Shown piece by piece: positions 10,519 to 47,764 of a stretch of 64,000 bases of DNA (position 1 is the first letter of the stretch; every line of letters starts with the position of its first letter). The stretch is from the NCBI GenBank assembly GCA_964422195.1, contig CAYRAF010000001.1:946-64945 (forward strand), given 5' to 3'. The notes under the pieces are model-generated. The model was not told the DNA's origin and did no database searches. It saw only the letters and a list, made by a program, of their open reading frames with translations. Source of the stretch: an uncultured Muribaculaceae bacterium. Its GTDB lineage: Bacteria; Bacillota_I; Bacilli_A; RF39; UBA660. The translations under genes and the position numbers were made by a program.

Positions 10519-11325
10519 ATGTATTCATTTATCTTTAATTTACCATATCCTGTGCAAGCACTACTTGCTGGTATATTTACTTGGGGAATAACGGCTTTAG
10601 GTGCAAGTATTATATTTATGTTCAAAAAAATAAACAAAACTTTTTTAGATGGAATGTTAGGTTTTTCTGCAGGTGTTATGATTGCAGCATCTTTTTTCTC
10701 ATTAATACAACCCGCTATTGAAAAATGTTTAGAATTAAAAATGATGCCTTGGTTAATGGTATCAATAGGCTTTTTATCAGGAGGTTTACTCTTATTTATT
10801 GGAGATAAAATATATGATATTTATAATAAAAAACATCCCCAAAATAAAAAAAACTCAAAAAATGAAAATATAAAACGTTGCATTATGCTAATATTTGCTA
10901 TTACACTACATAACATACCTGAAGGTATGGCAATAGGAATAGCCTTTGGTTCTATTAAATATGGTATGAATACTACTATGGCAGCACTTATTCTAACATT
11001 AGGTATTGGTATTCAAAATTTTCCTGAAGGAAGCGCTATAAGTGTACCATTAGTTAGAGAACATTTTTCTAAGAAAAAAGCATTCTTTCTTGGACAATTA
11101 AGTGCAATTGTTGAACCCATATCAGCATTCTTAGGAGCTTTAATTGTTATAAAAATGAATACTATTTTACCATTTATGTTATCTTTTGCAGCAGGTGCTA
11201 TGATTTATGTTGTTGTGGAAGAATTAATTCCAGAAAGTCAAACTAACGAAAGAAAAGATATTATGGCTTTATTCACCTTAATTGGCTTTTCTATTATGAT
11301 GATTTTAGACGTTGCATTAGGATAA
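10519..11325 (+). CDS. zupT: ZIP-family zinc transporter
   Basis: 8 TM segments. Conserved HNIPEGMAIG and QNFPEG motifs. Confidence 0.8.
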   Translation: MYSFIFNLPYPVQALLAGIFTWGITALGASIIFMFKKINKTFLDGMLGFSAGVMIAASFFSLIQPAIEKCLELKMMPWLMVSIGFLSGGLLLFIGDKIYDIYNKKHPQNKKNSKNENIKRCIMLIFAITLHNIPEGMAIGIAFGSIKYGMNTTMAALILTLGIGIQNFPEGSAISVPLVREHFSKKKAFFLGQLSAIVEPISAFLGALIVIKMNTILPFMLSFAAGAMIYVVVEELIPESQTNERKDIMALFTLIGFSIMMILDVALG

Positions 11326-11356
11326 AAAAAAGAAACTTTTAAGTTTCTTTTCTTTA
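11324..11356. terminator. Bidirectional rho-independent terminator between convergent genes
   Basis: A8-AGAAACTT-TTAA-AAGTTTCT-T4 hairpin, seen in the sequence. Confidence 0.45.
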
Positions 11357-11388
11357 CAATTAAACTACATAATATTCTTAAAACTTAT

Positions 11389-12921
11389 TTACTTCTTGTC
11401 TATCTTATCTTTTACAAAGCTTGCAAGGGCATTATTATCAATTGCATTATTAACCATTTTCATACCAAAACTTTTTGTTTTACCTACTTGCTTTCCTGGG
11501 TTAGTACCATGAACTATAGTATTATTAGCCCCATCCATTCGAGCATTACTAAGACCTTTCTTGGTTTTAATGAAATCATCAACCTGTCTTAGGTTAGTCA
11601 TATCACGTTTTGTTTCTTTTTCATATGTATGTCTAGCTCCAGTATTACGATATTTAGCATATATAATACCAAAGTAAATAAAACCACCAAATAGGAATAA
11701 CCAACTATAATCAGAATCAACAAAGAACATCATTAAGAAACATAATATTTCTATAATAGTTGAAATACCAACTAGTTTAGGCATATGAATAGGAACACTT
11801 CCCATTGTTTCTTTTGTTCTAGCATTAACTGCAACATAGTGAAGTAATTTTTTATCCCCACTAACCTGTTGATAACTATATAGCCATACTGGCAAATATG
11901 CTGCTTGCCATTGCTGACCTTTAGTATTCATATCTTCACTGGACCAAGCAACTCCACGATCATATTGCTTTAATGTATCATTTGCTGCAAAACGAGCAAC
12001 ATCTTTTGCTTGAGTATCCACTAATGTTTGTAAATCATCTATATTTGTATCACGCTTTTCAGAAGTATATCCTTTTAAATAATTAGCATTATATTTAACA
12101 CAATTTTCTGTATCAAAAGGCATAATAGCATTAATAATATTATTGGTTTTTTCTTTTGATGTAGTATTCAAGCGATCTGAACTTGATTCAACCGATAATC
12201 CTTGTATAGTTAAATCAAATTCTCTTTCTACATGATATAAATCAGCATCATATCTAGCTTCTTGATCATCACCAGAACCTACATAATACTTTCTTCTTAG
12301 ATGTTCTCCTTCACCATTTAAATTAACATGAGCATTAACATCAACTAACATATATGGAAAATATACTCCCATAATATTATTTGTAGTAAACTCAGCTTTA
12401 AATTTTGGATGAGCAAAAAATTTTCTTTTTCCAACAAATTGTTCAATAGAAACTTGTGCATCATTTTTAGTAACATTAAAAGGTAATACAACATCTGGAA
12501 CAGCGCCGTTTGGTATTTGCTCATTAACAGATAACGTATTTCTACACCAGTGACATCTAGCTTGGTTAGCAGAAGCTGTATCAATAACAACTTCTGCACC
12601 ACAACTACTACACTTAAATGTTAATACATCTTTAGTATCAGCCACTATATTTTGAGCACCTGAACCAATTACTTTTCCTTTTAATGAACTAATATCTTCC
12701 ACCATTCCTTTTACCTTTTCAGGTTCAAATTCATGGCGACAAAAGTTACATCTTAGTTTTCCATTTTTTACATTTGTTTCTATATCTGTTGCTCCACACT
12801 TTGGACATTTGTTTTGTCCATCTTTTGCTCCTACATCTGTTTTAATAACAGTTGTTTCTGAAGATGTAGTAGGAACTTCTTTATTCTCTGGAGCAGCCAC
12901 CTTACTATCATCATTATTCAT
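11389..12921 (-). CDS. YdjG/YdjH-like protein: two N-terminal zinc ribbons plus C-terminal TM helices
   Basis: CPKCG...CNFC and CSSCG...CHWC ribbons. C-terminal hydrophobic helices. Sits upstream of, and in an operon with, the SPFH protein, as in the B. subtilis pspA-ydjGHI arrangement. Confidence 0.5.
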   Translation of the reverse strand: MNNDDSKVAAPENKEVPTTSSETTVIKTDVGAKDGQNKCPKCGATDIETNVKNGKLRCNFCRHEFEPEKVKGMVEDISSLKGKVIGSGAQNIVADTKDVLTFKCSSCGAEVVIDTASANQARCHWCRNTLSVNEQIPNGAVPDVVLPFNVTKNDAQVSIEQFVGKRKFFAHPKFKAEFTTNNIMGVYFPYMLVDVNAHVNLNGEGEHLRRKYYVGSGDDQEARYDADLYHVEREFDLTIQGLSVESSSDRLNTTSKEKTNNIINAIMPFDTENCVKYNANYLKGYTSEKRDTNIDDLQTLVDTQAKDVARFAANDTLKQYDRGVAWSSEDMNTKGQQWQAAYLPVWLYSYQQVSGDKKLLHYVAVNARTKETMGSVPIHMPKLVGISTIIEILCFLMMFFVDSDYSWLFLFGGFIYFGIIYAKYRNTGARHTYEKETKRDMTNLRQVDDFIKTKKGLSNARMDGANNTIVHGTNPGKQVGKTKSFGMKMVNNAIDNNALASFVKDKIDKK

Positions 12922-12924
12922 AAG

Positions 12925-14151
12925 CTATAGTCCTAAAACTTCTGCTTTTACTTTATCATATTCTTCTTGTGAAATAGCTCCAGCATCAAGAAGTTTTTTC
13001 ATTTCTAATAGCTTTGCAGTTGGATCTTGAGCTGGTGCAGCTTGAGTTTCTGGTGCTGCAGCAGGTTGTTGATTAAATCCTGGTTGGTAAGCAGGTGGAG
13101 TATTAGGTTGTTGCATACCTCCCATCATACCACCGGCAGCATTCATACCCATTCCCATAAAGGCCATACCTGCTCCTCCTCCGTTTTCTCCAGCAGCTTG
13201 CATACCACGAGCAACAGATTGTTGCATAAACGCATTTCCTCTTGCTCCACTTAATGCATCAGCAGATTTAACATCTTTCATTAATTGTTTAGTATCTTCA
13301 TCATATTCAATAGCTAAAATAGCTGTTTTTACGATTTCAAGTCCACGATCAGTTTTCCATTGATAAGCATCTTCTACAGCTTGAGCCATAGCTTGTGCAA
13401 ATCCAATTTGATCTCCTTGAATCTTAGAAATTCTATTTCCTTTTGAAGGATCATTTGTATAATTTGAGAATGCAGCAGATAATGTACCAACTACTTCATT
13501 AAATAATTGTTCTCCTGCAGGATTATCCATATCTGCAAAATCAAATATTGGTGCTCCTGGCTGTAAATAAGATGCAGGAACAAAGTTCTTAACAAATAGT
13601 AATGGATCTACTATTTTTAATGTATAAGTACCACGAGTTACAGCTCCTACTTGTGTACCAAAGAAAGCATCATCCCAATATATTTCAGATTGTGTTCCAA
13701 ATCTGTTATTAGGAATTTCCTTTAAATTAACATAGAATGCTAATTGTTGTGCTCCTGGTTGACCACCAAATTTTACCTTTTCCCATGTAGACTTAATTGT
13801 TTGTCCAAAAATACCATCTCCAGCAAACATAGATTTTGAATTAGGATCATCAGATCTATATTCAAATCCACCTGCTTCGGCCACTATACCTGTTATTTGT
13901 CCATCTTGCATTGTAATTAATGCAGTGCCTTCAGGTACAATTATTTTACTTCCGTTTGTAATAATATTTTCATTACCTTTTGTGTTTTCTCCTCTTCCGT
14001 TATTTGTTCCTTGTGGAACAGCTTGAAATACTGCAGCTGTTGGTGTAATATCACTTCTTGGTGTATAAAAATCTTTCCATTGATCAGCAAAGGTTCCACC
14101 CAAAGCTCCAGAAAACGCTTTAATAAATCCCATAAAATACCTCCTTATCAT
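12925..14151 (-). CDS. SPFH/band-7-like protein (COG4260 virion-core-like, YdjI-like) with Gly/Met-rich linker and C-terminal SHOCT domain
   Basis: Matches the YdjI family pattern. The C-terminus (LLEMKKLLDAGAISQEEYDKVKAEVL) is a typical SHOCT domain. Confidence 0.6.
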   Translation of the reverse strand: MIRRYFMGFIKAFSGALGGTFADQWKDFYTPRSDITPTAAVFQAVPQGTNNGRGENTKGNENIITNGSKIIVPEGTALITMQDGQITGIVAEAGGFEYRSDDPNSKSMFAGDGIFGQTIKSTWEKVKFGGQPGAQQLAFYVNLKEIPNNRFGTQSEIYWDDAFFGTQVGAVTRGTYTLKIVDPLLFVKNFVPASYLQPGAPIFDFADMDNPAGEQLFNEVVGTLSAAFSNYTNDPSKGNRISKIQGDQIGFAQAMAQAVEDAYQWKTDRGLEIVKTAILAIEYDEDTKQLMKDVKSADALSGARGNAFMQQSVARGMQAAGENGGGAGMAFMGMGMNAAGGMMGGMQQPNTPPAYQPGFNQQPAAAPETQAAPAQDPTAKLLEMKKLLDAGAISQEEYDKVKAEVLGL

Positions 14152-14312
14152 TTTAAGATTTATTTAATAGATAGATAAAATTCATTATCATCCCTATCCT
14201 TTTTAATTATATCATATTTTTTTATATTTAGAATTAAAAAAAACATCGAATTTATTTCAATGTTTTTTATTGATTTTATCCTAATAATTTCTAGTTTAAA
14301 GATCCAAGCACA

Positions 14313-14930
14313 TTATTTTATTTCTATATTAATAAGTTCATTATTATCATCAAACTCCAATTTAAAAATTTCACAATTTTTTATTACCCCTTCTAATAAT
14401 ATTTTACATTTATAACTATATCTTAATTTATCATCAACAAGTTCAATATCACACCATTTTCTTAATAAATATGAAATAGCTGTAGCATGACTAACAATTG
14501 CAATTCTTTTTTCTTTACATTCATTTAAAATTTTCATAATTATAGCGTACATTCTATTCCTTACTTCTTTTTGACTTTCACCATTACCATATTTATAATT
14601 TTCATCTAAGAACTGTTTTCTTTCAAAGTTTTCAGGTAATTCTCCCCAATATGATATTCCAAATTTTCTTTCTCCTAAATCGCTAACTACATTTATCTCT
14701 AAATCATTTTTTTCTGCAATATATTTAGCCGTTTGAATAGTCCTAACATAATTTGAAGAAAACAAAACATCAATGTTAGTTAATTCTTTAGATGTAAGCT
14801 TTTCCTTTGCTAAATTCTCTCCTTCTATCGAAAGACAATACTTTTCGTTTTGAAGCTGCATTTTATCACTATTGTATTCATTATTAACTAAGAAAGCTTT
14901 TGAATGCCTTATTAAGTATAATGTTGTCAT
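14313..14930 (-). CDS. Histidine phosphatase family protein (PGM-like)
   Basis: N-terminal LYLIRHSKA (RHG-type motif). Later SHATAI His motif. Confidence 0.7.
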   Translation of the reverse strand: MTTLYLIRHSKAFLVNNEYNSDKMQLQNEKYCLSIEGENLAKEKLTSKELTNIDVLFSSNYVRTIQTAKYIAEKNDLEINVVSDLGERKFGISYWGELPENFERKQFLDENYKYGNGESQKEVRNRMYAIIMKILNECKEKRIAIVSHATAISYLLRKWCDIELVDDKLRYSYKCKILLEGVIKNCEIFKLEFDDNNELINIEIK

Positions 14931-14975
14931 AAATTAATTACCTCCATATAATTATTAAAAACTAGTTTTATATAC

Positions 14976-15449
14976 TTAGTATATAATTTTATCATCTTTT
15001 TCTAAAAAGTCATTAAATGTTTTTATAGTTTCATCTCTATAAATAGATTTTAATTCTAATTTATCACTATTAGATTTTATTTCTATTCCTTTAATGAAGT
15101 CATATATATAATCATCTTTAAAACCAATTTTAGCAGCATCATCAGTAGTATTTCCATAATATACAATTTTGATATTAGCCCAGATTATAGCAGATAAACA
15201 CATTGGACAAGGATAACAAGTTGTATATAATTCACATTCACTCAAATCATAAGAACCTAGAAATTTACAAGCATTCCTTATAGCAACTATTTCTGCATGT
15301 GCAGTAGGATCGTTAGAGCTTAAAACTTGATTTGACCCCTTTCCTATAATCTTACCATCTTTTACAACACAAGCTCCAAAAGGACCTCCAGCATTTGTTT
15401 TTAAATTTTCTTCTGCTAATTCCTTAGCCTCTTCCATATATTTATTCAT
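14976..15449 (-). CDS. guaD: Guanine deaminase (CDA fold, GuaD-like)
   Basis: GGPFGACVVKDG...SNDPTAHAEIVAIRNACK...CYPCPMCLSAI aligns closely with B. subtilis GuaD. 157 aa. Confidence 0.75.
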   Translation of the reverse strand: MNKYMEEAKELAEENLKTNAGGPFGACVVKDGKIIGKGSNQVLSSNDPTAHAEIVAIRNACKFLGSYDLSECELYTTCYPCPMCLSAIIWANIKIVYYGNTTDDAAKIGFKDDYIYDFIKGIEIKSNSDKLELKSIYRDETIKTFNDFLEKDDKIIY

Positions 15450-15489
15450 ATTATCTCCTATATCCTCTTATCAATATCTTAGTATTTTT

Positions 15490-15930
15490 CTATTTTGTTT
15501 TGTAATTTTTTAAAAATACTTCTAATTGTTCTTTATTATCAAAAATATCTTCAAAAATATTATACAATGTATCGGTAGTTTCATATTCACCTATTGCATA
15601 GCATTTTTTCCCTAATCCATAGGCTATCCCTGATTCAATATGCGCAGCTTTTCCTGCAGGTAAAACTAATAATAAATTCCTAGAACTTTTCTCTCCCTCT
15701 AAATCATCATGAAAAAGATTCAATACAATATCACTTTTTAACCCTAATGATTCAAATTCCTGCTGTCTTTCTTCTGGTGTTTGATCTTTATTACCATATC
15801 CCCAATTATCCTCATTTTTTAAAAAGCAATAATAAGAAATACTATATTTATCAAACATATCACAAATTCTTAATATATTATCTTTATTTCTTGCTCTACC
15901 TGCAATAAAAAATTCATATTTAATATCCAT
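15490..15930 (-). CDS. Nucleoside 2-deoxyribosyltransferase-like protein
   Basis: N-terminal FFIAGRAR and C-terminal HIESGIAYGLGKKCY resemble the DRTase-fold motifs (AGP...E.G.A.GKP). Confidence 0.5.
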   Translation of the reverse strand: MDIKYEFFIAGRARNKDNILRICDMFDKYSISYYCFLKNEDNWGYGNKDQTPEERQQEFESLGLKSDIVLNLFHDDLEGEKSSRNLLLVLPAGKAAHIESGIAYGLGKKCYAIGEYETTDTLYNIFEDIFDNKEQLEVFLKNYKTK

Positions 15931-16057
15931 ATTACCAACTCCAATATAATTATATCATATAAATTCTTAATTTGTTCACCTAGCTTGTTCTACTAGCTTA
16001 AGATAAATAAAGGGTTTGTAAAGTTTTGTAGCCTACATAACAGGGTTCCAATGTTCT
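15931..16057 (-). repeat. Leader/promoter module copy A. Contains a GTAGGCTAC palindrome, GCTAG-N2-GAAC direct repeats, an extended -10 TGATATAAT and a GGAG RBS.
   Basis: Near-identical to the copy at 18209-18335 and related to the copy at 17157-17290. Each sits immediately 5' of a minus-strand gene. Confidence 0.6.
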
Positions 16058-16101
16058 TATTGATATCTTAGTAATTTTTTACATATTTTTAAATTATATT
16101 A

Positions 16102-16130
16102 TTGATTACAGAACATTTGTTTGCTATAAT
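16102..16130 (+). promoter_or_regulatory. Sigma-A-type promoter for the small toxin-like mRNA: TTGATT-17 nt-TGcTATAAT
   Basis: Seen in the sequence. The predicted TSS at about 16138 coincides with the start of a 12-nt sequence (GGATACGTTTGA) that is complementary to 16360-16371. Confidence 0.45.
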
Positions 16131-16195
16131 ATATCTTGGATACGTTTGAAATATATCAGATGTTTTCCCTTCTAATTAAGAAGGGAGGTGGTATC

Positions 16196-16285
16196 GTGAC
16201 TAAAAGAGAGAAATCTCTATTTTTCATTATACTCCTTCTATTTATTATAATATTTATACTCTTGTATATTTTATTTTTTAGATAG
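16196..16285 (+). CDS. 29-aa hydrophobic peptide VTKREKSLFFIILLLFIIIFILLYILFFR. Candidate type I toxin.
   Basis: Strong SD AAGGGAGGTG, 5-nt spacer, GTG start. The SD is sequestered by the upstream CCCTTC/GAAGGG hairpin. Single TM helix with a charged N-terminus. Not in the ORF track because it is too short. Confidence 0.45.
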   Translation: MTKREKSLFFIILLLFIIIFILLYILFFR

Positions 16286-16287
16286 AA

Positions 16288-16399
16288 ATTAAAAACATCT
16301 GATTTCAACAATCGTTGACTTCAGATGCTATCCCAAGGGATTACGTCTGATTCGAGCAATCAAACGTATCCTTTTTTATTATATGAAGTTTCCCTCATC
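16288..16399 (-). ncRNA. Putative antisense antitoxin sRNA convergent with the toxin mRNA 3' UTR
   Basis: Minus-strand promoter TTGATA-17 nt-TGaTATAGT (plus coordinates 16435-16407). The minus-strand terminator hairpin CATCTGA...TCAGATG (16296-16327) is followed by a T-run, right next to the toxin stop codon. Overlap with the toxin mRNA is about 90 nt. Confidence 0.3.
16338..16378 (+). terminator. Putative terminator of the toxin mRNA, also the 3' half of the 5'/3' terminal pairing
   Basis: GGAT(T)ACGT...ACGTATCC followed by TTTTTT, seen in the sequence. Confidence 0.35.
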
Positions 16400-16478
16400 T
16401 GTATACACTATATCATAAATTTGAATTTTTATCAAGTTCTATAAACTTCTATCAATATCTTAGTGTTTTTTTATTATT

Positions 16479-17156
16479 TTATTTTTTTAATTTTCTTAGT
16501 GTTAAGACATGCCAGTTTTTCTGTTCTTTTCCACCTTCGTTATGATATTCTTCAATTTCAAATAAATTTTTTCTTAAGTTATCAATATCCTCTTTACTAA
16601 AATAAGCAAAAAATCTTTTTTCTTTTGTTTGTTTATCCTCTAAAATTTTATAATTATATTTAGTTCCATTAGGAAGAATCTCTGCTTCTGGATGAACTTC
16701 TGCGTTTTGAAAATTAATTATTAATAATCCATTATCTGATAATCCATTATATGCTACATCAAACAATTTTTTCATATCATCCATATCCAAATGCGGATTT
16801 CTCCATGATACTATAAGATCTGCTTTAAAAGCAAAAGTATCATCATACTCGTCAGATAAAAAATTATACTTTTTAACTTTTTTAATGCCAATTCTTTCTT
16901 GTTCGTTTAAAAAAGCATCAACAGTGTCCGTAGCTATAACATCATAACCTGCAGATTGAAGCATAAAAGCAAGCTGTCCACAACCACTTCCAAATTCAAT
17001 TATTTTTTTATTCTTATCTTTTTGTAGACCAGCATCTACATAGTTAAATAATCTTTCCCATTTTTCTGTTTCAGGCTCAATTTTATTTTGTTCTATATAT
17101 TCAAGTGCTCCACCAGAATTATACATATTTATAGTTTTTGAATTATGTTGGCTCAT
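16479..17156 (-). CDS. Class I SAM-dependent methyltransferase
   Basis: Motif I IIEFGSGCGQLAF, acidic motif II VIATD. 225 aa. Confidence 0.8.
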   Translation of the reverse strand: MSQHNSKTINMYNSGGALEYIEQNKIEPETEKWERLFNYVDAGLQKDKNKKIIEFGSGCGQLAFMLQSAGYDVIATDTVDAFLNEQERIGIKKVKKYNFLSDEYDDTFAFKADLIVSWRNPHLDMDDMKKLFDVAYNGLSDNGLLIINFQNAEVHPEAEILPNGTKYNYKILEDKQTKEKRFFAYFSKEDIDNLRKNLFEIEEYHNEGGKEQKNWHVLTLRKLKK

Positions 17157-17290
17157 ACAATATACCTCCTATATATGTATATATATAATACCATAGTAAT
17201 TGCTACTTTGTCACCTAGCTGGTTCTATTAGTCTAAAATAGATAAAGGTTTTGTGAAGTTCTGTAGCCTACGGCCTCTAAAAAGTGTATA
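17157..17290 (-). repeat. Leader/promoter module copy B (diverged), with GTAGGCTAC
   Basis: Shares the GTAGGCTACAGAACTTCACAAAACCTTTATCTATTTTAGACTAATAGAACCAGCTAGGTGA core (minus sense) with copies A and C. Confidence 0.5.
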
Positions 17291-17309
17291 TTTTTAATAT
17301 TTAGGCATA

Positions 17310-17334
17310 GAAAAAAGCCCGCAAATACGGACTT
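17310..17334 (-). terminator. Rho-independent terminator. A paralogous copy of the rpsI terminator, preceded by a duplicated rpsI 3'-end fragment.
   Basis: Minus strand GTCCGTATTTGCGGGC + T6. The upstream 21 nt (AATTTAGTAAGAGATAGGAAA) are identical to the last codons and stop of rpsI. Confidence 0.5.
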
Positions 17335-17464
17335 TCCAAAAGCTTTCCTATCTCTTACTAAATTAGCGTCACTTTATTTATGCGAGTTTACGGACATTTT
17401 GTAGCCTACTCGTAGCCTATTCTTAGTAGTACCTTAGTAATTTTCTTCTTTTCTATATATATTA

Positions 17465-18208
17465 TTAATATCCTCCATCAATTACCAATATTTCACTATT
17501 AACATAGCTTGATTCATCACTTGATAAATAATAAATTGTTTTTGCAATTTCTTCTGGTTTAGCAAATCTTTCTAAATATATTTTAGCATTTTCATCATCT
17601 ATATATTCTTGCGGCAATTCTTTATTCATATCAGTATCTGCCCAACCAATTGCAACTGCATTTACTCTAATGTTTGGCTTAAACTGATATGATAAATCTC
17701 TAGTAAGACTCTGTAATCCTATTTTAGAGACATTGTAATCTAAACATTCAGGAGAAATAGTTTTTGTACCATTGGTAGATGAGACATTTACTATAGTACT
17801 ACCCTTTTTCATATATTTTGAAGCCTCTCTTGAAACAATGAAGGCACCAATTACATTTACTTCTAATGTTCTTTTAAACTCCTCAACAGTAATACTTTCA
17901 AAATCTCTATCAAATACAATTCCTGCATTATTAACTACAGCATCAATTCTACCAAATACATTTATTATTTGCTCAATCATATTTTTTACTTCTAATTCGT
18001 TAGACACGTCAGCTTTAATTGCTAATGCTTTATTGTTAAATTCTTTTTCAACATATTCTTTCAATTCATCTGCAGCACTTGCAATTTTATTATAATTAAT
18101 AACGACATTATAGCCTTCTGAAGCAAACTTAATTATAGTAGCTTTGCCTATTCCTCTAGCACTACCAGTTACTAAAACAACTTTTTTATCCATTATTATC
18201 AACTCCAA
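17465..18208 (-). CDS. Short-chain dehydrogenase/reductase (SDR, FabG-like)
   Basis: TGSARGIGKA cofactor motif, NAG, YNVSK catalytic motif. Confidence 0.8.
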   Translation of the reverse strand: MELIIMDKKVVLVTGSARGIGKATIIKFASEGYNVVINYNKIASAADELKEYVEKEFNNKALAIKADVSNELEVKNMIEQIINVFGRIDAVVNNAGIVFDRDFESITVEEFKRTLEVNVIGAFIVSREASKYMKKGSTIVNVSSTNGTKTISPECLDYNVSKIGLQSLTRDLSYQFKPNIRVNAVAIGWADTDMNKELPQEYIDDENAKIYLERFAKPEEIAKTIYYLSSDESSYVNSEILVIDGGY

Positions 18209-18335
18209 TATAATTATATCATAAAAATTCTTAATTTGTTCAACTAGCTTGTTCTACTAGCTTAAGGTAAATAGAGGTTTCCCGAAGACTTTGTAGCCTA
18301 CCTGTAGCCTACTCGTAGCCTACGACGCTAGAAAC
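18209..18335 (-). repeat. Leader/promoter module copy C, with three tandem 11-bp-period GTAGGCTAC palindromes (18293, 18304, 18315)
   Basis: Seen in the sequence. About 90% identical to copy A over roughly 75 nt, including the extended -10 TGATATAAT and the RBS. Confidence 0.6.
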
Positions 18336-18362
18336 GTTCAAAAAGAAGATTTTTAGTCATGC

Positions 18363-18388
18363 AAAAAAGCCCGTAATACGGACTTTTT
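18363..18388 (-). terminator. rpsI rho-independent terminator
   Basis: Minus strand GTCCGTATTACGGGC followed by T6. Confidence 0.55.
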
Positions 18389-18410
18389 GAAACATATTGA
18401 ATAGTATTTC

Positions 18411-18833
18411 CTATCTCTTACTAAATTGTGGTGCACGTCTTGCTTTCTTTAAACCTGGTTTCTTTCTTTCTTTTACTCTAGAATCTCTTGTAATGAACCC
18501 TTCTGCTTTAAGAATTTTTCTAAAACTTGTTTCACTTGTTGGATCAGTATCTTTATCCATTTCAAGTAAAGCTCTAGTGATTCCTAAACGAATTGCTCCT
18601 GTTTGACCTGAGAATCCTCCACCTCTAACATCTACTTCTACATCAAAAGTTTCATTTGTATTAGTAGCAACTAAAGGTTGAGATAAATCCATAACTAAAG
18701 TTTCATAAGGTAAATATTCATGAACATCTTTACCATTAACAGTAATCTTACCAGATCCTGGGATTAATTTAACTCTAGCAATACTAGCTTTTCTACGTCC
18801 AGTTCCAGTATAAACATTTTTATCTTTTGCCAT
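18411..18833 (-). CDS. rpsI: 30S ribosomal protein S9
   Basis: Canonical S9 sequence, C-terminal ...[11 protein letters not shown]. Confidence 0.95.
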
Positions 18834-19383: not shown

Positions 19384-19452
19384 TAAATTTTCTATGATTT
19401 TCCTTAATTTTAAGTATTTTGTGCTATAATGATAAAGGAAGGTAGTGATAAA

Positions 19453-20082
19453 ATGGCATCTGCGATTATACATATTGCTGTAGCAAATGAGTTAAATAAA
19501 AAACTTAAACGTAATAGCTCTAAATTACTTATTGGTACCATCGCACCAGATATTTCTAAAGAAATAGGACAAAATAAAGTTAAAAGTCATTTTTTAGATA
19601 GTAAAGATACTGATATTCCGAATATTAAAAAGTTTTTAAATAAATATAAAAATAATTTAAATGATGATTTTGTATTAGGATATTATATTCATCTATATAC
19701 TGATTATCTATGGTTTAAGTATTTTGTTACTGAGTTTATACATGATAATATGATAACAAAATTAGATGGTACCCCTGTTAAAATAACAGATAATATGGCA
19801 ACACTATACATATATAATGATTACACAGATATGAATGTAAAAGTAATTGATGCTTTTAATTTAGATTTAAAAATCTTTTACAATGAAATTCCTATTCTAA
19901 AAGATATTATAAAAGAAATACCAATGAAAAATATAGATATTATTGTAAATAAGATAGGAAAAATAATAGAGGCATCTAAAGATAAAAAGAATTTAGTATT
20001 TAATATTGATAATATTAAACAGTTTGTAAGCACCTCAATTGAGTTGATAGAAGCAGATTTAAAAGATTTAAATATATTATAA
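19453..20082 (+). CDS. Hypothetical protein, possibly a metal-dependent hydrolase-like protein
   Basis: Start moved to the second ATG, which has an AAGGAAGG RBS and an upstream TGcTATAAT. No secure family assignment. Confidence 0.45.
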   Translation: MASAIIHIAVANELNKKLKRNSSKLLIGTIAPDISKEIGQNKVKSHFLDSKDTDIPNIKKFLNKYKNNLNDDFVLGYYIHLYTDYLWFKYFVTEFIHDNMITKLDGTPVKITDNMATLYIYNDYTDMNVKVIDAFNLDLKIFYNEIPILKDIIKEIPMKNIDIIVNKIGKIIEASKDKKNLVFNIDNIKQFVSTSIELIEADLKDLNIL

Positions 20083-22486: not shown

Positions 22487-24283
22487 TTATATTTGTTTAA
22501 CTTTTCCTTTATTTTTATTAATTAAATATTCCTTTAATTTTTTATAACCTTTATTTTCTATTTGATCTATTCTTTTATCTCTAACACTATAGATAGCAGC
22601 AAGTTCAGATAGTTTATAAACATACCCATCTAATCCTAATCTTTTACTTAATATATCTTGTGTTCTTAATGCTATATAAATACATTTATTACCAAGATGT
22701 TTGTTTTTATTCTCTTCAACACTTAATTCTACTGGAGTATAGTTTATATATATATTATGTTCAATATTATAAAATCTAGTTAATTCCATCATTTGTTCAA
22801 GTGTTATACATTTATTTTTTTGAGCAGTTGCTAACATTTCATTAACATAAATTTCTTTAAATTTTATGGAAGCATTAGGTTTAGTATTTCCCTCATATAA
22901 CTCTCTTAATACTTCACTATCATATAATTTATTTATACTGGTTACTATTTGATTTATTTTATTAGTAGACACTTTATTATTACTTAACATCACTTTTAGT
23001 CTAGCGTCATATTTTTGTGTTGATGTCTTTAAGGTTTCTTTAAAAACCCAAAAATCATATATTCTATTAATTTGGTCATTTAACTCTTCTATTCTTTTTA
23101 TATCACTAACAGTATATATTTTCTTGCTTAATAATTGTCCAAATTCTAAGATAATCTTTTTCTCTTTTTCAGTATACATACCAGTTACATCAATATATTC
23201 TTCATTAATATTAATATAGTACTTTTCCATATTTATAATGGCACTACGTACATTATCAATTGATTCTTTATCCTCTAATAGTTTTTCTATATTTTTAATA
23301 CTCTTATCCTCTACTACTTCAAATAAATCACTATTATCATCTTCTGTAATAGTAGCATTTAAAGAAATAGTATCATAGTTACTTTGTATACTCTTGATAT
23401 TTTCCATTAATTTTTTATACTTATTATCAAACTTTTTCATCAATTGATCTGTTATAGATAATTCTTCACTTAATATCCTATAACATGCGGCAATATCATC
23501 TTTACTAGTATTTTCTGCATATAATAATTGTTGATATTGATATAAAGCTTCAACTTGCCTTTCGTTAAGTCCTAGCTTATCATAAAACTCTTTTAATGTC
23601 TTATCATTTTCATAAAAAGCAATTAATAATTCATGAAGAGTCATATTTCTCTTATAAGTTTCTTTAAATTTATCATTTAATTGTCTTAATTTGTTTTGAT
23701 CTCGTGCTATATTAGATGGTACTTTAATATTTCTAGAGTTTATATATAAATATCTACTAATATATTGACGTATCCAATAAGTAGCATAAGTGCCAAACTT
23801 AACTTTTTTGGATACATCAAATTTTTGAGCAGCTTTATGAAGCCCTATATTACCTTCTTGTATTAAATCTAAAAAATTATCTTCGCTAGCATATCTTCTA
23901 GCAATGGATAAAACTAATCTTAGGTTAGATACTATCAATTTATCTAAGTATTTACTATCAAATTCTTTTTTTACTGCACATTCTAATTCTTCTTCTGGTT
24001 CTAATAACGGATATCTACTAATTTCTTCATAATACTTTTTAATAGAGTCTTCAGTATAATAATCATCTTCACTAAGCATTTGTTCATTAAATTCTTCAGT
24101 TATAGTTTGATTATCTTTAATAGATACTTTTTCTTCTTCTAATAATTCATATAGCATATCCAAATCATCATCTAAAAACAAATCATCCATCATTTTATTA
24201 ACTTTAGATAACGATATACTTTTATTACCATTCTCTATAATACTATTATCTCTAATAAATTTTAATACTTTTTGTTTATCCAT
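22487..24283 (-). CDS. RpoD-like sigma-70 family factor (598 aa) with a large insertion between regions 3 and 4
   Basis: Region 2 (LDLIQEGNIGLHKAAQKFDVSKKVKFGTYATYWIRQ) and region 4 (LSELAAIYSVRDKRIDQIENKGYKKL) are clear. About 330 aa of unassigned sequence lies between them. Confidence 0.75.
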   Translation of the reverse strand: MDKQKVLKFIRDNSIIENGNKSISLSKVNKMMDDLFLDDDLDMLYELLEEEKVSIKDNQTITEEFNEQMLSEDDYYTEDSIKKYYEEISRYPLLEPEEELECAVKKEFDSKYLDKLIVSNLRLVLSIARRYASEDNFLDLIQEGNIGLHKAAQKFDVSKKVKFGTYATYWIRQYISRYLYINSRNIKVPSNIARDQNKLRQLNDKFKETYKRNMTLHELLIAFYENDKTLKEFYDKLGLNERQVEALYQYQQLLYAENTSKDDIAACYRILSEELSITDQLMKKFDNKYKKLMENIKSIQSNYDTISLNATITEDDNSDLFEVVEDKSIKNIEKLLEDKESIDNVRSAIINMEKYYININEEYIDVTGMYTEKEKKIILEFGQLLSKKIYTVSDIKRIEELNDQINRIYDFWVFKETLKTSTQKYDARLKVMLSNNKVSTNKINQIVTSINKLYDSEVLRELYEGNTKPNASIKFKEIYVNEMLATAQKNKCITLEQMMELTRFYNIEHNIYINYTPVELSVEENKNKHLGNKCIYIALRTQDILSKRLGLDGYVYKLSELAAIYSVRDKRIDQIENKGYKKLKEYLINKNKGKVKQI

Positions 24284-47423: not shown

Positions 47424-47764
47424 GGGGATGTAATGGTTTCGACGGGAATATTTGAGCTTAAGTAGCAAGTCGTAAGTTATACGTTACATACAAATTTAAA
47501 ATATCTGGAAACAGAAACGAATTAGCTTTCGCCTAAGTTTAGAAAGCACTACTATACTCTGATATCTACTAAGAGATATAGTGGTTCATTTTTGTAGGTT
47601 ATACTATTTAAGTGTCTATATTAAATAGCGAACTTTTATAGACTAGCTATAATGTTACTTGTTAGTTTGTTTACGTTATAGCAAATCTTTTAAACTAACT
47701 AAGCTTGTAGAAGCTTTTGTGTTAATATTTTCGGACAGCGGTTCAATTCCGCTCATCTCCACCA
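47424..47764 (+). ncRNA. ssrA: tmRNA (SsrA)
   Basis: 5' GGGGATGTAATGGTTTCGACGGG and 3' GGACAGCGGTTCAATTCCGCTCATCTCCACCA. TGcTATAAT promoter at 47406-47414. Predicted tag frame GGA...GCC TAA (47508-47537) encodes (A)GNRNELAFA. Confidence 0.85.

Follow-up and report, generated by a model that had tools for sequence, protein, structure and literature searches.

Why do three unrelated genes, lying one behind another downstream of the ribosomal protein gene rpsI, each begin with the same non-coding sequence? The question is posed by the window analyzed here (the whole 64-kb stretch of DNA), for which a preliminary description proposed a small regulon controlled at an OmpR/PhoB-type activator site or, alternatively, serial duplication of a promoter cassette during gene acquisition. 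The second idea pointed in the right direction. Positions 11346–18410 probably form a variable island that arose by repeated site-specific integration of very small, integrase-less elements at the rpsI 3′ end, and the three modules are likely the rpsI-proximal attachment-site arms of successive elements, combined with the promoter that expresses each cargo. Shared sequence would then reflect an inherited mobile-element backbone rather than co-regulation, because its central block is kept across genera even where the −10 box is missing and is tied to the repeat GTAGGCTAC.

The three module copies are real, and a repeat finder and a profile search both placed them where they had first been described. 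Each is about 90 nt long and lies on the minus strand. A profile built from module copies matched the window only at 18301–18213 (module C, nhmmer E 1e-23), 16036–15949 (module A, E 4e-22) and 17271–17185 (module B, E 9e-20), with no further copies in the 64 kb. The repeat finder aligned 15930–16016 with 18194–18280 at 93% identity over 87 nt, in keeping with the roughly 90% estimated earlier for A and C, and delimited a three-copy family of 61 nt (15976–16036, 17211–17271 and 18240–18300) with 85% and 70% identity to the reference copy. The 24-mer core occurs twice (0 expected) and GTAGGCTAC six times in 64 kb (0.1 expected), always on the minus strand and always between 16028 and 18323. Every module runs from a GTAGGCTAC repeat (the last of several in C, a single one at 17263–17271 in B and at 16028–16036 in A) through a conserved block, which in C ends in CTTAAGCTAGTAGAACAAGCTAGTTGAACAAA, to a TG-extended −10. 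The promoter scan reported TGAACA-18-TATAAT at 18242–18213 and 15978–15949 and GTGACA-18-TATTAT at 17214–17185; as previously proposed, the three genes very probably have a promoter each. The direct repeat within the module reads AAGCTAG-TA/GT-GAAC. Its spacing is a 13-nt period and not the 12 nt given earlier. Two other identities for these sequences were considered and rejected. Rfam at gathering thresholds returned only tmRNA over the window, and nothing matched 15900–18450 at E up to 1, so the modules are not a known RNA leader; similarity of the direct repeats to the rpsI end was too weak for a secondary core.

The modules belong to a longer repeated unit that begins inside rpsI itself (18411..18833, minus strand, Pfam Ribosomal_S9, E 7e-46). 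Reading along the minus strand, the end of the gene forms a core, AATTTAGTAAGAGATAGGAAA (18407..18427), the left direct repeat of what we call mini-element 1. This exact 21-mer is found twice in the window, at 18427–18407 and 17364–17344, against 0.03 expected. It is followed by a terminator hairpin, AAAGTCCGTATTACGGGCTTTTTT (18363..18386), which was identified by reading the sequence and is conserved and duplicated in four taxa, and then by three GTAGGCTAC repeats (18293..18323, motif search), putative arm-type integrase-binding sites that constitute the sole tandem array of at least three copies at an 11-bp period in the 64 kb. Module C and the first cargo gene come next. The right arm (17372..17438) consists of the 3′ motif ACTAAGGTACTACTAAG, then ATAGGCTAC-GA-GTAGGCTAC and then AAAATGTCCGTAAACTCGCATAAATAAAG; it includes two GTAGGCTAC copies at 17420–17401 and is conserved in three other loci (L029, L038 and L041). 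It leads into the second core (17344..17364), a duplicated rpsI 3′ end that serves mini-element 1 as its right direct repeat and element 2 as its left one; it aligns with rpsI ends and with the internal duplicates found in four taxa. A duplicated terminator hairpin stands at 17311..17335 (repeat-finder family D7 and comparison with other taxa).

Behind the second and third cargo genes the same parts recur in reduced form, again on the minus strand. Cargo 2 is followed by the 3′ motif ACTAAGATATTGATAGAA (16447..16464). A further 3′ motif, ACTAAGATATCAATAAGA (16055..16072), continues as ..CTGTTAT and is joined directly to module A; core and terminator have been lost from this junction (16072–15949), and the same fused type occurs in L010 and L015. 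The motif behind cargo 3, ACTAAGATATTGATAAGA (15466..15483), abuts the ribosome-binding site of a deaminase gene. Along the backbone, the rpsI 3′ end and terminator are followed by one to three GTAGGCTAC repeats spaced at 11 bp and by a 55-nt conserved block; next come, in most cases, a TGnTATAAT promoter, then a single cargo gene, the 3′ motif (ACTAAG..TAAG) and further GTAGGCTAC repeats, and a second rpsI end closes the unit. Unrelated cargos have the leader in common as far as the ATG, and cargo-specific DNA begins very regularly after GTGAACAAA and stops at AAAATTACTAAG. The cassette-like organization that had been suspected is borne out. The preliminary description had passed over the duplicated rpsI end and terminator (17364–17311), the 3′ motif behind each cargo gene, and a toxin–antitoxin-like unit at 16085–16440.

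Mini-element 1 encodes a short-chain dehydrogenase/reductase (SDR) and nothing else, with no integrase, excisionase or transfer genes. The SDR gene (17465..18193, minus strand; Pfam adh_short_C2, E 6e-59) starts at the ATG at 18193, a correction to the earlier annotation, and all its NCBIfam matches fall below their family cut-offs. Cargo 2 (16479..17156, minus strand) is a SAM-dependent methyltransferase-like gene, recognized by weak and mostly sub-cut-off Pfam methyltransferase matches, a homologue of which is present as fragments in the rpsI island of L029. Cargo 3 (15490..15930, minus strand) encodes a 146-aa protein that has no match in Pfam, NCBIfam or PDB sequence searches, and the ‘DRTase-like’ label once attached to it finds no backing there. 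Between cargos 2 and 3 lies a unit resembling a type I toxin–antitoxin system (16085..16440, minus strand), composed of a structured minus-strand RNA (fold z-score −7.15) and a 29-codon hydrophobic plus-strand ORF (16196–16285), with convergent promoter-like sites in the promoter scan. The distal part of the island, 11389–15449, holds four more minus-strand genes assigned by Pfam: a deaminase (14976–15449), a histidine phosphatase (14313–14930), an SPFH/SHOCT protein (12925–14151) and a 510-aa zinc-ribbon protein (11389–12921). No recognizable backbone stands between these genes, and a module stands in front of a histidine-phosphatase homologue in L042. The Pfam scan covered part of the window; most genes outside the island were recognized from their translations and from the Pfam families of syntenic genes in relatives.

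The same backbone lies directly behind rpsI in at least nine other taxa whose S9 proteins are 65–77% identical, with a different cargo each time (loci include L015, L029, L030, L037, L038, L039, L040 and L041). Across these loci the non-coding module is conserved at a mean of 0.77, compared with 0.73 for the rpsI coding sequence. Behind the first cargo, the rpsI 3′ end and terminator are duplicated in the window and also in L029 (~68 nt, nearly identical), L038 and L041; each of these four has the left edge of its repeat at AATTTAGTAAGAGATA, and the internal core copies are preceded by a conserved arm, CGCATAAATAAAGG..GCT. These direct repeats, which carry the 3′ end of the target gene, correspond to the attL and attR sites expected of a cis-mobilizable element (CIME). 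The repeat-bearing block is always found beside GTAGGCTAC repeats and nearly always beside the rpsI 3′ end. Cargo units have been transferred horizontally. The 146-aa protein is 98% identical in L040, whose S9 is 65% identical, and the toxin–antitoxin-like unit is 92% identical there (with an ATG in place of the GTG start) and occurs as a variant in L042; relative to the window, L040 carries these two units in reversed order. Exact-protein look-ups with the window’s S9, L13 and 146-aa protein matched same-strain fragments only. A scan of a genome collection with a 17-mer gave 29 loci, six of them true copies and the rest mostly chance. Scans of viral contigs with the module, the rpsI-core attachment site, or the arm repeat plus flank gave nothing or chance matches in high-GC contigs; the internal attachment site had no BLAST match in phage and plasmid collections, and a literature search for GTAGGCTAC recovered primers and unrelated sequences only.

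Comparison with close relatives resolves the site into distinct states. The island is flanked by truA, rplM and rpsI on one side and by ZIP and Abi_2 on the other, and synteny on both sides is retained. The ZIP transporter gene (10519..11325, plus strand) marks the conserved far-side chromosomal flank and shares 56% identity with its counterpart beside the L025 array. The rpsI locus was walked in six related species, which displayed empty, single-cassette and multi-cassette states and no integrase. A species with a 92%-identical S9 has an empty site in which 45 nt separate rpsI from ZIP and rpsI ends differently (AAACGTTAA); species with a 93–94%-identical S9 have one cassette, whose cargo is a GNAT gene or an unrelated 151-aa gene; in the window species the interval is 7 kb. 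By locus, L151–L154 are empty, L136–L150 have one cassette, and the window and L146 have eight genes. The check proposed in the preliminary description gave the predicted result: the modules and their genes are missing between rpsI and the next conserved gene in relatives, as are all the distal genes from the deaminase to the zinc-ribbon protein. Presence or absence at a conserved site with empty relatives, a further mark of CIMEs, is seen here too. In the window rpsI closes with AGT AAG AGA TAG and the relatives’ empty sites with AAA CGT TAA; the window’s last codons are of the type supplied by the element.

The GTAGGCTAC arrays connect this locus with a family of tyrosine integrases. Lambda-type attP sites carry arm-type sites, to which heterobivalent tyrosine integrases bind through their N-terminal domain. 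In viral contigs, tyrosine integrase genes are directly followed on their 3′ side by three and five copies of GTAGGCTAC. Of 80 related integrases (the NGFGSVYK-type family, in viral contigs L050–L129), 52 had sufficient sequence downstream, and 32 of these were accompanied by a tandem array, defined as at least three copies of TGTWRGYTAC-type repeats with an 11-bp period within 600 nt of the integrase stop codon. Such arrays appeared only twice elsewhere in 345 kb and never in shuffled sequence. The family includes rpsI-specific members: 13 integrase loci sit at rpsI with a common layout of rpsI stop, terminator, ~55 nt, three arm repeats, direct-repeat pair, small ORF and integrase. The module’s direct-repeat block takes the position at which these elements hold their second direct-repeat pair beside the arm repeats. 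Exact core matching for the second end of large rpsI prophages gave single matches except for the small element L130, which is complete at 7.8 kb, has arm repeats at either end and leaves 36 nt from its last arm repeat to the second core; the corresponding distance in the window is 38 nt. Within the window, tandem 9–10-mer repeats of the TGTWRGYTAC type at an 11-bp period flank the core on both sides, as in lambda-type sites, and the whole site spans ~285 bp. The terminator and then three arm repeats on the rpsI side, with 36–38 nt from arm repeat to core on the other, match the geometry of the integrase-bearing rpsI elements L104 and L130. The window site differs from NGFGSVYK-type sites in that the repeat is GTAGGCTAC instead of GGTAACTAACA and the element lacks an integrase. 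A tblastn search with four integrases found no homologue, and hence no cognate integrase, in the window or in ~45 related loci, and none of the integrase-bearing rpsI elements of the same layout in other Firmicutes has GTAGGCTAC arm repeats at rpsI. Because GTAGGCTAC comes close to being a palindrome, which way it faces a partner integrase cannot be told.

We hypothesize that each element is essentially a lambda-type attachment site of ~285 bp around one cargo gene. The rpsI-side arm comprises the rpsI-end core, terminator, a ~40-nt spacer, one to three GTAGGCTAC repeats at 11-bp spacing and a conserved block that ends in AAGCTAGTAGAAC-AAGCTAGGTGAACAAA, followed by the TG-extended −10 promoter, ribosome-binding site and cargo ORF; the far arm comprises ACTAAG-N5/6-MTAAG, one or two GTAGGCTAC repeats, ~38 nt and the core again. 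Integration, presumably around CCACAATTYTCAAA, would provide rpsI with a new 3′ end and terminator. Where a further element entered that same core, a complete internal attachment site would remain, as at 17438–17185, and deletion between arm repeats would fuse neighboring cassettes, as at 16072–15949. The repeats GTAGGCTAC are predicted to be bound by the N-terminal arm-binding domain of an integrase that acts in trans and is encoded elsewhere or now lost, and the predicted cargo promoters would be expected to fire. The 13-nt direct repeats may be an accessory or excisionase site, or an operator.

The last option touches on the regulon first proposed, in which the modules are one regulated promoter and AAGCTAG-N2-GAAC at the −35 position binds a response-regulator-type activator, which places the three genes under common control. 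OmpR/PhoB-family sites are known to take the form of tandem direct repeats at −35; all three modules have the TG-extended −10, the second repeat overlaps the −35-like TGAACA or GTGACA, and the direct repeats are among the most conserved positions of the module. A regulatory protein may bind there. However, about six of 18 module copies have no −10 box at that position and keep the block (in L015, L037, L039 and L041), which is never seen without an adjacent GTAGGCTAC and belongs to an rpsI-linked island wherever its context is visible. The copies are confined to that island, with none elsewhere in the 64 kb, instead of lying as operators before dispersed units at a fixed promoter distance. The cargos have no relation to one another and change from taxon to taxon, the modules bring no regulator gene with them, and promoter-like matches in this A+T-rich region are near chance overall (40 found, 33.5 expected). 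With the shared block conserved across genera even where the −10 is absent, we regard the regulon as distinctly improbable. Still less credible, to the point of being very nearly discounted, is an integron-like origin, in which an integron integrase would act on the junctions as attC-type sites in folded, single-stranded form. One-gene cassettes arranged head-to-tail, a junction element of 110–280 nt in each, and a toxin–antitoxin-like unit within the array, as in chromosomal integrons, would suit it. Yet the junctions fold no better than shuffled sequence on either strand (z −1.2 to +0.1), and attC-like junctions were rejected since neither junctions nor modules carry a single-stranded-DNA folding signal. 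Neither IntI with attI and Pc, nor any other integrase gene or attI-like platform, adjoins the array; the cassettes bring their own promoters, and 11-bp tandem arm repeats with a duplicated target-gene end are lambda-type hallmarks.

A more serious rival concerns present-day activity and not the site-specific origin: the backbone could be the relic of old integration, with cassettes now moving between strains solely by transformation or other DNA transfer and homologous recombination in conserved flanks, as Neisseria ‘minimal mobile elements’ do, and with no site-specific recombinase active today. None of the arrays had an integrase nearby, many junctions have decayed, and cargo swaps are bounded by conserved flanks. 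One SDR allele break falls 33 nt inside the ORF with 100% identity upstream, the signature of homologous and not site-specific exchange. Against recombination as the only route stand intact internal attachment sites and near-perfect core repeats in several taxa (~68 nt in L029), and arm repeats that are exact 9-mers in up to three copies. Because the module is as conserved as a ribosomal protein gene, selection on the sites appears to have continued. We therefore consider this reading unlikely, although less so than the regulon. No excised circle or recent integration event was observed.

Repeated site-specific integration has its closest precedents in CIMEs and tandem accretion at gene 3′ ends, as described for the ICESt1/ICESt3 family and for streptococcal IMEs and ICEs in the rpsI 3′ end (PMC5704250, section 2.3 and Table 1; PMC5090054; PMC5357655). 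The parallels are the rpsI target, flanking direct repeats that include the gene end, retention of both attachment sites without integrase or transfer genes, and tandem arrangement with internal attachment sites. CIMEs, however, are several kb of decayed ICE or IME, whereas the elements here are ~1.0–1.2 kb with one cargo gene, share a standard backbone with a cargo promoter and sharp cargo boundaries across genera, and reside in uncultured low-GC gut and rumen Bacilli in which no helper element was found. The impression is of a family of minimal elements that propagates, not of separate products of decay. Repeated integration at one conserved gene end, producing a hypervariable island with partial target copies, is also known from the ssrA-specific islands of Dehalococcoides, which integrate site-specifically at a single-copy RNA gene (PMC3146451), and from Prochlorococcus tycheposons at RNA genes (bioRxiv 10.1101/2020.12.28.424599); their targets are tRNA or tmRNA genes, and their elements are larger and usually have their own integrase.

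Integron arrays share with this island the single-gene cassettes, small accessory enzymes, variable content between close relatives and an internal toxin–antitoxin-like unit; they differ in having an adjacent integrase and attI and folded hairpins, and in lacking cassette-borne promoters and insertion at a ribosomal protein gene end. SCC and pseudo-SCC islands at the rlmH (orfX) 3′ end in staphylococci and pdif modules in Acinetobacter plasmids are further parallels. Like the elements described here, they are recombinase-less modules between recombination sites, in tandem at one chromosomal gene end, with the recombinase in trans; unlike them, they use serine Ccr recombinases or XerC/D, SCC is much larger, and neither has an arm-repeat architecture.

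Cargo boundaries are too regular for random decay of larger elements, and a further cargo-exchange process is therefore needed. We tentatively suggest, as a conjecture that may well prove wrong, a self-standing class of minimal mobile cassettes (a ~285-bp site, a standard promoter and leader, one ORF) that are not decay products and that a trans-acting, rpsI-specific tyrosine integrase captures, shuffles and spreads among genera of gut Bacilli. rpsI would then serve as an integron-like platform with double-stranded arm-type sites, stabilized by a type I toxin–antitoxin cassette. If mobile as units, these mini-elements would be among the smallest integrative elements known and would offer a second, mechanistically different route to integron-like cassette arrays. 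What appeared to be a regulon becomes a defined gene-flow hotspot in an uncultured gut and rumen Bacilli lineage, for which attachment site, arm sites and type of integrase can be predicted exactly; the ~285-bp site with its integrase would be a compact tool for placing genes after rpsI where genetic manipulation is difficult. Small phosphatases, nucleotidases, deaminases, GNAT acetyltransferases, NUDIX hydrolases and SDRs are prominent among the cargos, a hint that these reduced genomes are under selection for ‘house-cleaning’ of nucleotides and metabolites.

The island at the 3' end of rpsI spans 11346-18410, downstream of a minus-strand run of truA (20838-20095), rplM (19277-18849) and rpsI itself (18833-18411). 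On the same strand it holds an SDR gene (18193-17465), a methyltransferase-like gene (17156-16479) and a gene for a 146-aa protein (15930-15490), each of them cargo, followed by genes for a deaminase (15449-14976), a histidine phosphatase (14930-14313), an SPFH/SHOCT protein (14151-12925) and a 510-aa zinc-ribbon protein (12921-11389). The preliminary description had reported a repeated module in front of each of the three cargo genes, and this was borne out. The copies at the SDR and 146-aa genes are 93% identical over 87 nt, a 61-nt family is present in all three copies, and a profile built from them matches the window solely at 18301-18213 (SDR), 17271-17185 (methyltransferase-like) and 16036-15949 (146-aa gene). 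The arm repeat GTAGGCTAC occurs six times in the window against 0.1 expected, always within the module region. A promoter scan also recovered the extended -10 claimed for every module, with a TG-extended -10 at the module end and a -35-like hexamer 18 nt upstream; the direct repeat AAGCTAG-NN-GAAC, described as spaced by 12 nt, has a period of 13 nt instead. The AAGCTAGNNGAAC repeats, like the ACTAAG-N5-CTAAG motif, may be protein-binding sites. We consider it probable that successive miniature integrase-less elements accreted at the rpsI 3' end, and that each of the three modules is the rpsI-proximal attachment-site arm of one such element together with its cargo promoter.

The structure of such an element can be read from features that had gone unnoticed, namely a duplicated rpsI end with its terminator, a 3' motif behind the cargo and extra arm repeats after the SDR gene. 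The final 17 nt of rpsI plus 4 nt (AATTTAGTAAGAGATAGGAAA) recur with the terminator hairpin behind the SDR gene (17364-17311), and a conserved 3' motif, AAAATT-ACTAAG-N5/6-MTAAG, lies behind each cargo gene (minus-strand copies at 17438-17422, 16464-16447, 16072-16055 and 15483-15466). Behind the SDR gene this motif leads into two further GTAGGCTAC-type repeats, a conserved 29-nt stretch (AAAATGTCCGTAAACTCGCATAAATAAAG) and then the duplicated rpsI end. The unit between both rpsI ends measures 1.06 kb and consists, in order, of terminator, spacer, three arm repeats, conserved block, promoter, SDR gene, 3' motif, two arm repeats and 38 nt. Like the arm repeats, the 3' motif shows direct repetition, CTAAG being followed by CTAAG or ATAAG at a period of 11-12 bp; it forms the right-hand edge of every cargo swap observed and may bind a second protein.

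The same backbone was found in other taxa. Module cores were detected in four Erysipelotrichaceae/Tenericutes-labelled MAGs by a scan of one genome per species and in six additional contigs by a metagenome scan. In loci L015, L029, L030, L037, L038, L039, L040 and L041 the module lies directly behind the rpsI terminator, despite S9 proteins only 65-77% identical to that of the window. Feature maps give a shared order of core (the rpsI 3' end copy), terminator, arm repeats, block, cargo, 3' motif, arm repeats, 29-nt arm and core, after which terminator, arm repeats, block and the next cargo follow again. Locus L029 carries a 1.2-kb alpha/beta-hydrolase element between near-identical 68-nt repeats of rpsI end plus terminator, and the DNA beyond the second repeat differs. 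When the rpsI ends of four taxa are aligned with the internal duplicate of each, the repeat has its left edge at AATTTAGTAAGAGATA every time, and a conserved arm, CGCATAAATAAAGG..GCT, precedes the internal copies. At junctions lacking core and terminator (window 16072-15949, L010 and L015) the 3' motif passes via ..CTGTTAT directly into arm repeat and block, the exact product that a deletion between arm repeats would give. Compared between taxa, the non-coding module matches the rpsI coding sequence in conservation (mean identity 0.77, up to 0.91, versus 0.73). At L030 (1585-1691) the final 53 nt of rpsI form a perfect tandem duplicate (…CAAAGAGATAA|AGAAACC…CAAAGAGATAG) with zero nt between, preceding terminator and module; this suggests either that attachment-site homology can extend ~50 nt into rpsI or an aberrant recombination product.

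Arm repeats of this kind also accompany tyrosine integrases. In viral contigs, tandem GTAGGCTAC-NN-GTAGGCTAC arrays of three and five copies stand directly past the stop codons of two tyrosine integrase genes (Pfam Phage_integrase), one of them ~100 nt from a tRNA gene 3' end. These two integrases retrieved 80 related loci. In 52 of them 100 nt or more of downstream sequence is available, and 32 of the 52 have an array of three or more tandem copies at an 11-bp period within 600 nt of the integrase stop. The 9-10-mers of these arrays are related (TGTTAGCTAC, TGTTAGTTAC, TGTGTATTAC, GTAGGCTAC), and elsewhere only two such arrays occur in 345 kb, with none in shuffled sequence. The window has exactly one, at 18291-18323. 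Among the viral integrase loci (L050-L129), the repeat sequence seems to change together with a short stretch of the integrase N-terminus (W.ARVT.GW with GTAGGCTAC, YVAKKTKGW with TGTTAGTTAC, F/WR.R.T.GW with TGTGTATTAC), which could be a readable recognition code of the arm-binding domain.

Thirteen integrase loci are integrated at rpsI and convergent with it, in the order rpsI stop, 25 nt, terminator hairpin, ~55 nt, GGTAACTAACA three times, a direct-repeat pair TCTTGTGCAA, a small ORF and the integrase. A complete 7.8-kb element, L130, has core and arm repeats at both ends, with 36 nt from the last arm repeat to the second core versus 38 nt in the window. The layout is the same, except that in the window a cargo gene replaces the integrase and the remaining element; no integrase homologue was found in the window or any related rpsI locus. 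In streptococci, tyrosine-integrase IMEs and ICEs are well known to integrate at the rpsI 3' end; integrase-less derivatives that retain both attachment sites and accumulate in tandem are termed CIMEs (PMC5704250, PMC5090054, PMC5357655). Our account of the integrase involved, of promoter activity and of what the 13-nt direct repeats do is inference.

Close relatives were found by a protein-database search with S9 and their rpsI loci read. One strain, its S9 99% identical, shares the eight-gene island. In species with 93-94%-identical S9, synteny is kept on both sides (AddA ... truA-rplM-rpsI | ZIP-Abi_2-HtrA-DAGK-Crp-NrdD-dUTPase) and a single gene lies between rpsI and ZIP, usually a GNAT, though L147 has an unrelated 151-aa gene instead, the swap being limited on the left near an arm repeat and on the right at AAAAATTACTAG. 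The absence of modules and genes between rpsI and the next conserved gene, raised earlier as a check, was found in a species with 92%-identical S9: the rpsI-ZIP gap is 45 nt, with a terminator common to both genes. There rpsI ends in TCAAAACGTTAA, not ..AAGAGATAG. All occupied sites, including the integrase-bearing elements of other Firmicutes, end in AAGAGATAR, which indicates that the element supplies a new gene end; the crossover would lie within AATTYTCAAA. The array of RUG10970 is likewise flanked by a ZIP gene (56% identity), with entirely different cargo. In a rumen species whose S9 is 81% identical, six genes make up the island, and decayed traces of arm, core and terminator lie between them.

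The modules had been read mainly as the shared promoters of a small regulon. They do carry predicted promoters, but an alignment of 18 copies leaves this reading unsupported. The invariant parts of the block are GTAGGCTACA, CTTTAT and TAGTAGAAC.AGCTAGGTGAACAAA, and the TGnTATAAT box stands at a fixed distance in about 12 of the 18; it is missing in L015, L037, L039 and L041, where the cargo start is further off and the block is nevertheless kept. The block is more than a promoter. Serial acquisition of promoter-bearing cassettes, offered as the alternative, came close to the mark. Single-strand-folded junctions were rejected because neither modules nor junctions fold as single-stranded DNA; these match no Rfam family, and nothing similar turned up in phage and plasmid collections. 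As for the origin of the miniature elements, cargo-specific DNA starts past GTGAACAAA and stops at the 3' motif, and such regular boundaries, with a standard leader common to unrelated cargos, suggest that they propagate as a family rather than arise each time by decay.

Horizontal movement of units follows from locus L040, where the 146-aa gene is 98% identical and S9 only 65%. At the DNA level the match extends from the module block up to the stop codon of that gene and breaks off in the 3' motif. The protein, previously called DRTase-like, has no sequence match in Pfam, NCBIfam or PDB; it is conserved and mobile, with 76% identity in L015. A co-occurring strain (L001, 1667-1819 versus window 18193-18040) is 100% identical across rpsI, the module and 33 nt into the SDR gene, past which identity falls to about 75%. 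One SDR allele has been swapped for another here, and the breakpoint within the ORF is the signature of homologous recombination.

Cargo observed comprises SDRs, GNATs, histidine phosphatases, pyrimidine 5'-nucleotidase, inositol monophosphatase, NUDIX, DUF402, queuosine salvage, PHP, peptide deformylase, alpha/beta hydrolase, deaminase, methyltransferase and several unknowns. In the window, L010/L025, L029, L038, L041, L042 and L161 it is enriched in small enzymes for nucleotides and phosphate esters (histidine phosphatases, 5'-nucleotidase, IMPase, NUDIX, DUF402, deaminase, a HAM1-like pseudogene, PHP and queuosine salvage), with GNATs and SDRs frequent as well; resistance or classical defence genes were not among the cargo observed.

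The array also contains a type I toxin-antitoxin-like unit (16085-16440, both strands) between two 3' motif copies. It encodes a 29-codon hydrophobic ORF, MTKREKSLFFIILLLFIIIFILLYILFFR (16196-16285, plus strand), with a GTG start and GGAGG upstream, and a convergent, strongly structured minus-strand RNA (fold z -7.15), with promoter-like sites at both ends and no Rfam match. The unit recurs beside cassettes in two other taxa (L040 6430-6820; L042 1180-1530); in L040 it is 92% identical, starts with ATG and follows the 146-aa gene, which it precedes in the window.

Elsewhere in the window, truA and rplM are separated by a zinc-dependent phospholipase-C-like gene (19429-20082, plus strand), and a 598-aa sigma-70-like gene stands upstream of ECF ATPase genes (22487-24283, minus strand). 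Both are present in the window's species (L146 too) and missing from the otherwise syntenic sister species L136; these represent additional small indels around the ribosomal operon. A tmRNA gene (47424-47764, plus strand; Rfam 150 bits) is followed by plus-strand genes within an otherwise minus-strand region, and tmRNA genes are common integration sites.
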